NCBI GenBank assembly: GCA_020351025.1
Contig: CP070728.1
Location: 1,827,510 to 1,891,509, forward strand
Direction of reading: 5' to 3'
From: Planctomycetota bacterium
GTDB lineage: Bacteria; Planctomycetota; Phycisphaerae; Sedimentisphaerales; Anaerobacaceae
Length of the DNA: 64,000 nucleotides
Shown here: in pieces, positions 32,651 to 36,037 of the stretch
Layout of the letters: each line of letters starts with the position of its first letter
Position numbering within the stretch: position 1 is the first letter of the stretch
Made by a program: the position numbers and the translations under genes
The notes under the pieces: model-generated
The model's input: only the letters and a program-made list of their open reading frames with translations
Databases searched by the model: none
What the model was told of the DNA's origin: nothing

Positions 32651-32684
32651 TATAACGTTTAAAGCTGCTAAAACTAAAATCAAG

Positions 32685-32727
32685 AGGGCTGAGAGGCCAG
32701 AACACTCTCAGCCCTTGTTATTTTTTT
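32685..32727. terminator. bidirectional rho-independent terminator between convergent genes
   Basis: AGGGCTGAGAG (32685-95) and CTCTCAGCCCT (32705-15) form an 11-bp stem, followed by TGTTATTTTTTT. Confidence 0.75.
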
Positions 32728-33049: not shown

Positions 33050-33784
33050 CTATTCGTCAAACTTCATACCGTACGCATCGTGGAAAGGGCTTGAGCCAAA
33101 CGTTTCGTATCCTGAAGGTGCTTTGTACTCAGCACCCAGATGGATTATTTTCTGTTTTGCAAGGTAGCCATCTGTCCCCGGCTTTTCGGGATTCTCGTAT
33201 TTGTCTTTGGTAACGAGATAATACCAGTTGTCGATTCTTCTTACTTCGGTCTCTATCCCGAAACGAGCAAAATACTGACTTACAGGTTCCAAATGAGCCC
33301 TGACCTGATAGGTCTGTATCACGATTCGATTATTGCCCTTTACATCAGCAGGAATTGCGTCCGCCGCAGGTGCAACTGTTGCAGCTGCGGTTTCAGCTGG
33401 AGCAGCCGCTGGCGGGGCACCAGCCGTCGCCTCAGGCGCCACTATCTGGGTGTTTTCCGGCATCTCTGCAACTGAAGCGGCTTGCTTTTGAGCACCCAGA
33501 CTCTGACCAAACCTAAAAACAACCAAAACCAACAGAATAAAGCCCAAAAGCAAGGCAACTGCAAGCTGATATGGTATTGACAACTCAATTCTGTTTACAT
33601 TAAATTGCATGATTTTCGGTCTCTTGGGCCATCTTGTCAGCCTTGAGATTGATGCAAGAGGTTCTGCTGTAACTGGCGTATCCCCATCGGATTCTTCTTG
33701 ATGCAATATCTTGTCGTAGTGTGGCTTAGACCAGGTCTTGCCGATTACCTCATAAAAAGCCTTTTTCTTGCGATTACGTACCAT
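33050..33784 (-). CDS. single-pass membrane protein with Ala/Pro-rich linker and SPOR-like C-terminal domain (tentative)
   Basis: TM LAVALLLGFILLVLVVF, APEATAGAPPAAAPAETAAA linker, and RIVIQTYQVRAHLEPVSQYFARFGIETEVRRIDNWYYLVT, which fits a SPOR-type beta-alpha-beta pattern. Confidence 0.5.
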   Translation of the reverse strand: MVRNRKKKAFYEVIGKTWSKPHYDKILHQEESDGDTPVTAEPLASISRLTRWPKRPKIMQFNVNRIELSIPYQLAVALLLGFILLVLVVFRFGQSLGAQKQAASVAEMPENTQIVAPEATAGAPPAAAPAETAAATVAPAADAIPADVKGNNRIVIQTYQVRAHLEPVSQYFARFGIETEVRRIDNWYYLVTKDKYENPEKPGTDGYLAKQKIIHLGAEYKAPSGYETFGSSPFHDAYGMKFDE

Positions 33785-34030
33785 AATCGCACAAGCCTAA
33801 TTCCCAAAAATACCTGATACGTAGTATTTTATCGGCTAACTCAGGGTTAACAAGCCAAAAACCGGTAAATAAATTGTCCAACCTTTTTTACAATATTTCA
33901 ATATGAATTTCAATGGGAAAGTTTAACGATACGGCAGAGACAGGCCGGAGGCAAATGCATAAATATAGTCAATTCAGGTTAAGTAGGATAGACTAAAAGT
34001 TTTAGTTTTTAGTGCTCTGAAGGGGAAATG

Positions 34031-34140
34031 TTGCAAAAAGTTGCAAAATGTTGCAAAACTCTGCCAAAATAGCGCAAAACGTTGCCAAACTTATACAAAA
34101 CCTTGCGAAACTTATGCAAAAAAGTGCCAAATTTTGCAAG
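34031..34140. repeat. eleven degenerate 10-bp phased units, core TGCnAAA(A)
   Basis: ttgcaaaaag / ttgcaaaatg / ttgcaaaact / ctgccaaaat / agcgcaaaac / gttgccaaac / ttatacaaaa / ccttgcgaaa / cttatgcaaa / aaagtgccaa / attttgcaag fall exactly on successive 10-nt blocks. Confidence 0.85.
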
Positions 34141-34441
34141 CTCCCGCACATTTGATTGAATTTTTGTTCATCTGAAAAATTCAATGAAAATCCGAAATCC
34201 AAAGCACGAAATTCCAAACAAATCCGAAGGACAAAAATACAAAATTCAAAATGAAATAGATAAGCCACAGATTTCACAGAGAAACTTCGTATCTCGAGAA
34301 GCGTGAAGCGTATCCCGATGGAACTGAAAACTTAAAGCTAAAAACGCAAAACCATAATGTTAAATTCAAAATTAAATAGACGCAGAAGTCGCCCAAAACA
34401 AACATAAAAACAAAAAATAAAAAGCAAAATTAATTTTTTGC

Positions 34442-34470
34442 TGGACATTTTCAGGCCATCTTAGTATAAA
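34442..34470 (+). promoter_or_regulatory. candidate promoter TGGACA-17-TATAAA for sRNA candidate A
   Basis: TGGACA at 34442-47, 17-nt spacer, TATAAA at 34465-70. Confidence 0.45.
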
Positions 34471-34476
34471 AAACAC

Positions 34477-34544
34477 GAGGAAACATCAGGGCTGGGTTAT
34501 ATCGCTTTTTCCCCTCTCCCTCCGCTCCCAGCCCTGTTTTTTTT
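34477..34544 (+). ncRNA. candidate small RNA A: long hairpin with C/U-rich loop plus U8 terminator
   Basis: CAGGGCTGGG (34487-96) pairs with CCCAGCCCTG (34527-36). Loop contains TTTTTCCCCTCTCCCTCC. T8 at 34537-44. No upstream plus-strand gene to terminate. Confidence 0.5.
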
Positions 34545-34614
34545 CTGCGCATAGGGTGTTTTTACGGCCTCATTACAGGGCTTTTCCTTCCGGGTCTGCA
34601 ATGGGAGTGTATAT

Positions 34615-34689
34615 AAAAAAAACCCCTGCTTTGAAGGAGGAAGAGGAGGGGAAAAACGCAGGGGCTTTTCAGAAAAATAATTCTTCTAC
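34615..34689 (-). ncRNA. candidate small RNA B (convergent paralog of A): hairpin with C/U-rich loop plus U8 terminator
   Basis: Minus strand reads CCCCUGC-GUUUUUCCCCUCCUCUUCCUCCUUCAAA-GCAGGGG-U8 (stem arms at 34658-64 and 34623-29, U-run at 34615-22). Confidence 0.5.
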
Positions 34690-34695
34690 CAACAC

Positions 34696-34723
34696 ATTTT
34701 ATGTCTTCCACCAGTGAGAGCAA
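34696..34723 (-). promoter_or_regulatory. candidate promoter TTGCTC-16-TAAAAT for sRNA candidate B
   Basis: On the minus strand: TTGCTC (34723-18), 16-nt spacer, TAAAAT (34701-34696). Confidence 0.4.
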
Positions 34724-34888
34724 GAAAAAAATATAAAAAGACGCCTAAGAACATCGAATCCCAGAATTCACACTGGAATCGTGTTTAAATAAGTCTTGGC
34801 TGCCTGAAATGTGGAAGGAGAAAAGAGGGCGAGGCAACTCCTAATTGAGAACCATCGGTGCAGATGGCTTCGGGGCTATAGTTTGCGA

Positions 34889-34916
34889 TTGACGAACAAA
34901 AGTATTTGACTATGAT
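34889..34916 (+). promoter_or_regulatory. candidate promoter TTGACG-16-TATGAT placed for a leaderless aminotransferase mRNA
   Basis: TTGACG at 34889-94, TATGAT at 34911-16. The ATG of the CDS is at 34925, only 8 nt after the -10 hexamer. Confidence 0.45.
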
Positions 34917-34924
34917 GTCGTGAA

Positions 34925-36037
34925 ATGAGAAAGATTGTAGCAGAACGGACAAGCAAAATAGACGCGAGCGGGATAAGAAAGGTCTTTGCACTGGCAGCGG
35001 AGCTTAAGGACCCGGTAAATTTTTCAATAGGTCAGCCTGATTTTGATGTGCCCGAGCCACTGAAAAAGGAGGCAATAAAAGCGATTAAGGCAGGGCAAAA
35101 TAAGTATTCACAGACAGCGGGCGATAGCGTTCTTAAAGAAAAGATAGCGGAGCAGGTAACAAAGGAGTTCGGCTGGTCGGAACCGGCTATACTTGTAGCC
35201 AGCGGTGTCAGCGGGGGGCTGCTACTTGCGTTTATGGCGCTTGTCAATCCGGGGGACGAGGTAATTATACCGGACCCTTATTTTGTAATTTACAAACATG
35301 TGATCAATTTGCTCGGCGGCAAGTGCGTTTTTGTCGACAGCTATCCAGATTTTAAGCTGCCTGTTGAGAAAATCCGTGAGGCAATAACAGAGAAGACGAA
35401 GCTGATTATAGTCAATTCGCCTTGCAATCCAACAGGAGCGGTACATTCGCAAGAACAGATAAAGGCGCTTGCCGAGACAGCCGGTGAAAGAGATATACCT
35501 GTTATGAGTGATGAAATATACGAGAAATTCTGCTACGACGGAAACTGCACAAGTATAGCGAATTACTACGACAAAACGCTTTTGCTTCGGGGTTTCAGCA
35601 AGAGCTACGCGATGGCCGGCTGGCGGCTGGCTTATGCAGCGGCCGGCGAACCGCTTAGGGACGTAATTGAAGAGATGACTAAAATACAGCAATATACCTT
35701 TGTCTGCGCGCCTACACCTTTCCAAAAGGCAGCAATTGCGGCACTGGATTATGATATAAGCGACCTGGTTGGTGCGTACAGGGAAAAAAGAGACCTTCTT
35801 TATGATGGATTACGGGACAAGTTCGAATTGGTCAAGCCGGGCGGGGCATTTTATGCATTCGTTAAGGCCCCAGTAGGGGGGTCGGCGACGGAATTTGTAG
35901 AAAATGCAATTGCCAACAATGTGCTTATCATACCAGGGAATGTATTTAGCGAAAAAGATACGCATTTCAGGATAAGCTATGCAACAAGCAACGAAAAGAT
36001 AAAACGGGGGATAAAGATTCTACGTCGGCTTGCGTAG
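34925..36037 (+). CDS. class I/II pyridoxal-phosphate-dependent aminotransferase (aspartate aminotransferase-like)
   Basis: SGIRKVF, NSPCNPTG and the GFSKSYAMAGWRLAY PLP-lysine motif. Confidence 0.9.
   Translation: MRKIVAERTSKIDASGIRKVFALAAELKDPVNFSIGQPDFDVPEPLKKEAIKAIKAGQNKYSQTAGDSVLKEKIAEQVTKEFGWSEPAILVASGVSGGLLLAFMALVNPGDEVIIPDPYFVIYKHVINLLGGKCVFVDSYPDFKLPVEKIREAITEKTKLIIVNSPCNPTGAVHSQEQIKALAETAGERDIPVMSDEIYEKFCYDGNCTSIANYYDKTLLLRGFSKSYAMAGWRLAYAAAGEPLRDVIEEMTKIQQYTFVCAPTPFQKAAIAALDYDISDLVGAYREKRDLLYDGLRDKFELVKPGGAFYAFVKAPVGGSATEFVENAIANNVLIIPGNVFSEKDTHFRISYATSNEKIKRGIKILRRLA

Follow-up and report, generated by a model that had tools for sequence, protein, structure and literature searches.

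Two hairpins that face one another across a short intergenic spacer, each preceded by promoter-like hexamers and followed by a run of U, raise a simple question: do they end transcripts of something else, or are they transcripts in their own right? The case considered here lies in a 64-kb stretch (the window, whose numbering is used throughout) of contig CP070728.1, from a Planctomycetota metagenome-assembled genome (MAG) of Sedimentisphaerales-like Phycisphaerae. A 1,140-bp gap between two divergent genes, 33050-33784 on the minus strand (p244) and 34925-36037 on the plus strand (a class I/II aminotransferase, AT), is occupied by unit A, read rightward, and unit B, read leftward. The reading favoured here, at evenly balanced confidence, is that A and B are two genes for non-coding small RNAs (sRNAs), each transcribed on its own, whose C/U-rich terminator loop would act as the functional seed. 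The evidence that carries it is comparative: in related genomes the hairpins and the hexamers are retained, and the sequence between them drifts.

The first-pass annotation of this DNA drew each unit as a promoter, a GC-rich hairpin and eight U residues. Direct reading of the sequence together with folding reproduces that anatomy for both units (Table 1). The two hairpins fold as drawn with their loops entirely unpaired, at minimum free energies (MFE) of -22.8 kcal/mol (A) and -21.9 kcal/mol (B), and none of 200 shuffles is equally stable (z = -3.4 for A and -3.35 for B). The loops of all homologues described below are likewise unpaired in their MFE folds. A weak hairpin at the 5' end of predicted RNA B has the appearance of covariation, but folding of the homologues gives no such prediction in L081 or L089, and it was dropped as an element since it is not predicted in every homologue.

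As terminators, the units are only partly conventional. Intrinsic terminators typically carry a loop of 3-8 nt and close the transcription unit of a gene at its 3' end. Here, a GC stem and a directly adjoining U-tract are present in both units; the short loop is found in neither (30 nt in A, 28 nt in B), and a terminator scan set to loops of 3-8 nt leaves A unlisted and reports B only as a 5-bp sub-hairpin. Because both flanking genes are transcribed away from the gap, as had been pointed out from the start, neither hairpin terminates an annotated gene.

Table 1. Features of units A and B and of the adjoining AT promoter, with identity to the window in the seven relatives that carry both units
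Feature	Position	Strand	Description	Identity to window
Unit A upstream block TTTTTTGCTGGACA	34434-34447	+	contains -35 TGGACA (34442-34447); cross-lineage conservation begins here	92-100%
Unit A promoter spacer		+	15 nt in alignment	33-60%
Unit A -10 TATAAA	34465-34470	+	17 nt past -35; TATAA invariant in alignment	71-86%
Unit A stem CAGGGCTGGG / CCCAGCCCTG	34487-34496 / 34527-34536	+	10 bp, 8 G-C pairs	97-100% (stem and loop)
Unit A loop TTATATCGCTTTTTCCCCTCTCCCTCCGCT	34497-34526	+	30 nt, 87% pyrimidine	97-100% (stem and loop)
Unit A U-tract T8	34537-34544	+		
Predicted RNA A	34478-34544	+	~65 nt, 5' end placed from the -10 position; short leader, stem, C/U-rich loop, U8	
Inter-unit spacer	34545-34614	.	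between two convergent terminators	39-70%, large indels
Unit B U8 (A8 on + strand)	34615-34622	-		
Unit B stem CCCCTGC / GCAGGGG	34658-34664 / 34623-34629	-	7 bp, 6 G-C pairs	100%
Unit B loop GUUUUUCCCCUCCUCUUCCUCCUUCAAA	34630-34657	-	28 nt	61-93%
Predicted RNA B	34615-34689	-	~75 nt, putative 5' end; AU-rich leader, weak 5' hairpin (34665-34689), stem, C/U-rich loop, U8	
Unit B -10 TAAAAT	34696-34701	-		
Unit B promoter spacer		-	16 nt	36-57%
Unit B -35 TTGCTC (GAGCAA on + strand)	34718-34723	-		83-100%
AT promoter TTGACG-16-TATGAT	34889-34916	+	not part of the units; near-consensus, conserved, listed by generic scan; ends 8 nt before ATG at 34925	

Conservation of the units among relatives

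The comparison rests on 173 loci collected around orthologues of AT (~1 Mb altogether), cited below by locus label (L081 and so on); the nearest genomes bear the labels Phycisphaerae or Sedimentisphaerales, and the relatives' assemblies are independent of one another (JGI, ENA, NCBI). A block holding both units lies upstream of AT in seven further lineages, which are all the close relatives examined (AT protein 82-89% identical): L081-083, L084, L085-087 and L089 (87-89%), L090 and L170 (84%), and L091 (82%). The order within the block is constant: A promoter, hairpin A, spacer, hairpin B, B promoter, AT promoter, ATG. Thus the hairpins recur upstream of AT in related genomes; their absence from relatives is what the first-pass annotation had named as telling against its proposal.

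Two more distant lineages carry unit A with its own promoter and without B. In L111 (AT 81%) the promoter is TTGACG-16-TAAAAT, the stem GACGGGGCUGGGC/GUCCGGCCCUGUU and the loop GAUCCUCUUUUCCUCUCCCUCCGCAG, and the -35 block has the homologue TTTTTTGGTTGACG. In L025, which equals L128 (77-78%), these are TTGACT-17-TATATA, GAACGGGGCUGG/CCAGCCUCGUUC and UUUCCUCCCUCCUCCCUCCGCAU, with CTCTTGACT as the block homologue in L025. Against a covariance model of A (R1), homologues score 93-97 bits, with 63.6 bits for L111 and 35 bits for L025/L128; the corresponding model of B (R2) matches only B homologues, at 79-106 bits.

As a neutral yardstick, identity to the window was taken at the four-fold degenerate sites of AT, where it is 0.53-0.63 in the lineages with both units, 0.42 in L111 and 0.37 in L025. 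Set beside this, the hairpins are far more conserved, as are the flanking hexamers, whereas the promoter spacers and the inter-unit spacer are free to drift (Table 1). The -35 and -10 hexamers of A and B together are 71-100% conserved at a fixed spacing of 16-17 nt. For unit B, the relatives read TTGCAC-16-TACAAT, TTGCTC-16-TATAAT and TTGCTT-16-TATAAT, and the -10 element reaches the consensus TATAAT in L090, L091 and L170. On the other side, conservation sets in exactly at the T6GCTGGACA block of unit A, and the DNA on its 5' side is unrelated from one lineage to the next. A frozen hairpin with retained hexamers and freely changing spacers is the pattern predicted for a small transcribed gene. 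By this measure the alignments show purifying selection on the hexamers, the stems and the single-stranded C/U loops, and the initial suggestion that A and B are candidate sRNA genes gains support from it.

Unit A is, moreover, autonomous and independent of the genes upstream, since the upstream DNA differs from lineage to lineage, the p244-p87 gene pair found there is inverted in the window, and the promoter-like block of the unit is retained nonetheless.

The structure of the A stem is maintained across this set. When nine distinct A sequences are aligned to R1, 98.9% of the stem cells are paired; one of the ten pairs is doubly changed, a compensatory replacement of A-U by G-C, and five pairs have one-sided changes of the G.U type. 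The six G.U or U.G substitutions, spread over four lineages, favour an RNA of the plus strand, because a transcript of the minus strand would have A.C mismatches at these places.

Within the loops, the common element is short. CCCUCC is present in every copy of A and B. Loops of the A type share CUCCCUCCGC, those of the B type share CCCUCCUCUU(U)CCUCC, the B loop of the relatives reads GUCUUUCCCUCC... or AUCUUCCCUCC..., and loop length ranges over 23-30 nt among homologues. The proposal of a loop shared by A and B stands in that both contain the CCUCC core; the shared 11-mer itself, UUUUUCCCCUC, is confined to this genome, and the core common to all is CCCUCC. The further description of the two as paralogs goes beyond what can be demonstrated. 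Their stems are unrelated and their similarity is confined to a low-complexity loop; R1 scores B at 15.4 bits (E = 0.17), and R2 does not retrieve A at E<=5. Common descent of A and B is possible.

Neither unit is repeated elsewhere in the DNA compared. The 11-mer TTTTTCCCCTC has exact matches at only these two sites of the window, and allowing one mismatch adds no further site there. A scan for hairpins with a long pyrimidine loop and a T-run returns only A and B in 64 kb and only their homologues in the ~1 Mb of related DNA; R1 and R2, run with filters off, find no unit copies beyond A and B in the window and only syntenic copies in the related loci; viral collections hold no copies. The possibility raised at the outset, that the hairpins are copies of a dispersed palindromic repeat lacking promoters, thus meets a single locus in the DNA compared. 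Within the window and the ~1 Mb examined, the pair is vertically inherited at one locus and is not an element resembling repetitive extragenic palindromes (REP) or miniature inverted-repeat transposable elements (MITE).

Additional R1 matches were rejected. Those in L013 and L141 are ordinary terminators, and that at 32677-32726 of the window is an ordinary bidirectional terminator with a short loop (~9 nt in its full stem; the R1 alignment uses a shorter stem, which leaves 13 nt in the loop). Terminator loops in L013, L141 and L081 measure 4-6 nt. As ordinary terminators have such short loops, conserved loops of 23-30 nt are not needed for termination. The terminator at 32677-32726 sits between a gene with RCC1 repeats and p87, where the inverted p244-p87 segment has its other edge, and its stem, AGGGCTGAG/CTCAGCCCT, closely resembles the AGGGCTGGG/CCCAGCCCT of unit A.

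The spacer between the units is variable in all but one part, TGCGCATA, which directly follows the U-tract of unit A. A palindromic octamer, (A/C)TGCGCAT, occupies 34545-34552 in all lineages with both units, and L111 has GTGCGCAAATTGCGCG at that place. In L170 alone, a 27-nt perfect palindrome, CCCCGTTAGAAAAGTTTTCTAACGGGG (1063-1089), lies between A and B and looks like a miniature insertion.

Candidate functions and their rivals

If A and B are sRNA genes, their action would likely involve: initiation at a promoter of the sigma-70 type, a few nt (A) or ~25 nt (B) before the GC-rich hairpin; termination at the hairpin and U-tract, yielding RNAs of ~65 nt from the plus strand (A) and ~75 nt from the minus strand (B); presentation of a large (23-30 nt), purine-poor and thus unstructured terminator loop, whose invariant core CCCUCC includes the anti-Shine-Dalgarno sequence CCUCC; antisense pairing of this loop with purine-rich sites of the GGAGG(G) type in mRNA 5' regions; and, as the outcome, a block to 30S binding or altered mRNA stability. 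Transcription, the RNA ends, the mode of base pairing and the targets are what we infer here. Given characterised precedents for seed pairing (LhrC, RepG, RsaE and U-tails of the Hfq-binding type), occlusion of GGAGG sites by A and B is plausible by analogy.

Of the 47 gene starts in the window, called crudely, about 10 have a 4-mer Shine-Dalgarno (SD) core, against 9% of random 17-nt windows, and seven have a 5-mer core, against 3%. The earlier statement that only a subset of genes carries an SD thus roughly holds in the window, with the same caution about start calls.

Several results weigh against the sRNA reading. The covariation analysis called for in the first-pass annotation yields nothing significant: in the A stem, 107 of 500 shuffles reach the observed values, and the B stem is invariant. 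Covariation fails to reach significance because the stems hardly vary, and the structural support consists of maintained pairing and strand asymmetry, not of significant covariation. The promoters proposed there have their hexamers at the spacing given, retained in relatives while the spacers drift, but a generic sigma-70 scan lists neither of them; the -10 element of unit A is without the usually conserved final T, and the -35 element of unit B, TTGCTC, matches three of six consensus positions. Target search is equally unrewarding: when RNAduplex pairs both loops with the two strands of the window, which covers 64 kb of a genome of more than 2.2 Mb, the top non-self sites, at -25 to -28 kcal/mol, equal the tops of shuffled loops, and the RCC1 gene that had been named as a target does no better. 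The window has no excess of GGAGG (81 sites, ~97 expected), and the 5' regions of AT, NaPi, PhoU_div, PHO4 and NfeD are alike with and without the units. Lastly, the distribution is patchy, about 160 other AT loci (74-84%) being without both units at this position. One apparent target signal, at AT, was set aside: it comes from a run of G between the promoter hexamers, 5' of the -10 element.

A bolder form of the proposal has A and B as anti-SD mimics that would compete with the 3' tail of 16S rRNA for the minority of mRNAs with a strong GGAGG, and so serve as a switch for a planctomycete 'SD regulon'. We regard this as a minor possibility.

Nor is an mRNA necessarily the partner of a pyrimidine loop. 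The RNAs could be decoys or sponges for a protein that binds pyrimidine or poly(C), such as S1, a KH-domain protein (KhpA/B) or a cold-shock protein. The unusual length (23-30 nt) and near absence of purines in the loops would suit such a role, as would the invariance of the whole 30-nt A loop, well beyond a seed of 6-8 nt, in lineages ~40% diverged at synonymous sites, and the window offers no convincing mRNA partner. Against this, the data point to no particular partner protein; A, L111, L025 and B differ in loop length and flanks and have CCCUCC alone in common, which fits a short seed better; and characterised RNAs whose terminator loop is C/U-rich work through base pairing (PMC4132741, PMC8295292). 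The decoy role is on balance a slim prospect.

Were the units merely terminators or insulators against read-through around AT, their promoters would be fortuitous and their loops devoid of function in trans. Each unit does have the GC stem and U-tract; in relatives, a run of U4-5 follows the B hairpin on the plus strand and could stop plus-strand read-through; ancestrally, p244-p87 precede unit A and share its direction; and the generic scan passes over both promoters. Yet termination has no need of a loop of 23-30 nt when nearby ordinary terminators have loops of ~4-9 nt, and it leaves unexplained why hairpin A is 97-100% identical where neutral sites are at 53-63%. It accounts no better for -35 and -10 elements held at fixed spacing between drifting spacers, or for the persistence of unit A, upstream block included, where the genes upstream have been replaced or inverted, and those genes have terminators of their own (201-235 in L081; 32677-32726 in the window). 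A purely terminating role is doubtful, a little more so than that of a decoy.

A signal at the level of DNA is very improbable, whether as operators of AT, as H-DNA tracts or as relics of a mobile element with inverted repeats, situated at a rearrangement hot spot. Such an explanation would draw on the upstream boundary of the block, a hot spot at which several contigs end, on a third G-rich tract just upstream of the AT -35 element, and on the imperfect inverted repeat of 18 nt, with 83% complementarity, that A makes with B. It is contradicted by the G.U-type changes of the A stem, which pair only in plus-strand RNA, by vertical inheritance at one locus with no further copies in the 64 kb, the ~1 Mb of related DNA or viral contigs, by the lack of the third tract in L091, and by the presence of A without B in L111 and L025.

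The idea that the units act in cis on AT, as a leader or attenuator, or that they are genes for small peptides, is hardly credible despite the tight conserved linkage to AT, the mechanical open reading frames (ORFs) of 53 aa that span the region on both strands and the 93-aa ORF placed there by the gene caller in L081 and L083: the first is rejected because AT has its own conserved, near-consensus promoter abutting the ATG, and further faces a terminator directly after the A promoter with no alternative antiterminator, a unit B on the opposite strand and ~400 nt of unrelated sequence between A and AT in L111, while any conserved ORF is excluded by the frame-breaking 1-nt indels of the B loop and by spacer indels that are not all multiples of three, and no start codon follows a purine tract in either unit.

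Other features of the gap

On the far side of the gap, p244 is a membrane protein without a Pfam match whose C-terminal part is SPOR-like by eye; it is paired with p87, a small basic protein (segment 32766-33784). The pair is inverted in the window relative to at least 13 relatives (L001, L005, L007, L009, L015, L020, L042, L056, L060, L065, L068, L069 and L070), in which both genes point towards AT. The DNA just upstream of unit A differs between all lineages, and two contigs end at the block or within ~40 nt of it; the upstream edge of the A block marks a rearrangement hot spot.

On the near side, the AT promoter ends so close to the ATG that it implies a probably leaderless AT mRNA in the window and in L081-L089. 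AT has instead a ~60-nt leader of tandem 8-mers (ATTAGCGA/ATTAGTGA/ATTAGCAA) in L090 (355-451), L091 (2425-2501) and L170 (1290-1383). Just upstream of the AT -35 element, at 34806-34837, lies the third purine-rich tract, GGAAGGAGAAAAGAGGGCGAGG, GA-rich on the plus strand and CU-rich on the minus strand. Its sequence in L081-L089 is GAGAGGGGAGGGCAGGG; L090 and L170 have a G-rich version, and L091 has none. Read on the minus strand, the tract could fold into a weak hairpin of 7 bp whose CU loop spans 26 nt, and it has no U-tract.

Two sets of repeats lie between p244 and unit A. Seven to nine copies of TGC(A/C)AAA / GTTGCAAAA, phased every 10-11 bp, span 34022-34140 on the p244 side and resemble A-tract bends or iterons; no comparable cluster occurs in any of the 173 related loci. 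A 41-nt direct repeat (34220-34260 and 34340-34380), whose copies are 120 nt apart with 73% identity and end in AAATTCAAAAT(G/T)AAATAGA, sits in a strongly A-rich stretch upstream of unit A. The cumulative GC skew of the window has a minimum near ~30 kb, where gene orientation shifts from mostly minus to mostly plus and the genes are plsX-fabH-fabD-fabG-fabF and those of phosphate transport. The skew minimum and the phased repeats suggested a replication origin, an idea rejected on the count of DnaA-box-like sites (16, with 14.75 expected) and on the fab and phosphate-transport neighbours.

Comparison with characterised RNAs

Regulation by sRNAs is almost unexplored in Planctomycetota: one survey counts eight distinct Rfam sRNA families in the Planctomycetes-Verrucomicrobia-Chlamydiae (PVC) group and 345 in Proteobacteria (PMC9029176). 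The organisms considered here are known only as MAGs. The locus is compact and precisely delimited, and comparative data define its candidate promoter, seed and terminator. If the CCCUCC loops target GGAGG-type sites, it would show how SD-led translation can be tuned where most genes are without an SD; should the candidates fail, they would still be instructive on how far promoter-hairpin-U-tail anatomy and conservation can be trusted.

No known family covers the units. With Rfam 15 at gathering scores, the window yields three tRNAs only, and no tRNA or tmRNA lies near the units. Scans by E-value of the unit region, L025 and L111 give no family, the sole hit being the atoC RNA motif, below threshold, and the RsaE (RF01820), LhrC and RepG families have no match even at E<=10 in 33700-35000.

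The atoC motif (RF01733; Weinberg et al. 2010, PMC2864571), known from delta-proteobacteria, resembles the units in having a terminator-like hairpin with the loop uuuCCCUCC followed by a U-run. As the best Rfam match it nonetheless reaches only 22.0 bits on window B and 20.5 bits on L025 A, against a gathering score of 50; it comes from another taxon, has a different upstream hairpin and is likely cis-regulatory for genes of the atoC type, whereas A and B are a free-standing convergent pair.

RsaE/RoxS of Firmicutes, the system first invoked for this locus, shares the principle of unpaired C-rich motifs that occlude the SD; the UCCC motifs of RsaE, RNAIII and SprD bind SD regions (PMC4132741). 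RsaE/RoxS is a multi-hairpin RNA of ~100 nt with several short C-rich motifs, placed in small loops and in linkers, as opposed to one long CU loop in a predicted RNA of 65-75 nt for A and B. Its model does not match them, and their host lineage uses the SD for a minority of genes.

RepG of Helicobacter pylori is a conserved sRNA whose seed is likewise a C/U-rich terminator loop; the pairing partner is a G-rich stretch of an mRNA leader, and the second stem-loop of RepG is by itself enough for regulation (PMC8295292). It is unrelated in sequence, its Rfam model gives no match to A or B, it is single-copy, and its target is a homopolymeric G-repeat, of which the window has no counterpart or outstanding partner.

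LhrC1-5 of Listeria monocytogenes are multicopy small RNAs in which redundant CU-rich sites (CUCCC/UCCC), one of them in the terminator loop, pair with the AG-rich SD and block translation (PMC4132741). The terminator loops of A and B also contain UCCC/CUCCC, and their eight terminal U residues recall the run of at least seven that is typical of Hfq-binding sRNAs (PMC5558911). LhrC differs in phylum, without similarity to A or B in sequence or by covariance model; it has three CU sites in two hairpins and a linker, in place of essentially one hairpin with a loop of 23-30 nt, and its copies are in tandem, in place of two that converge. Judged against these systems, A and B are a candidate for a new sRNA family, narrow in distribution and mechanistically of a known kind.

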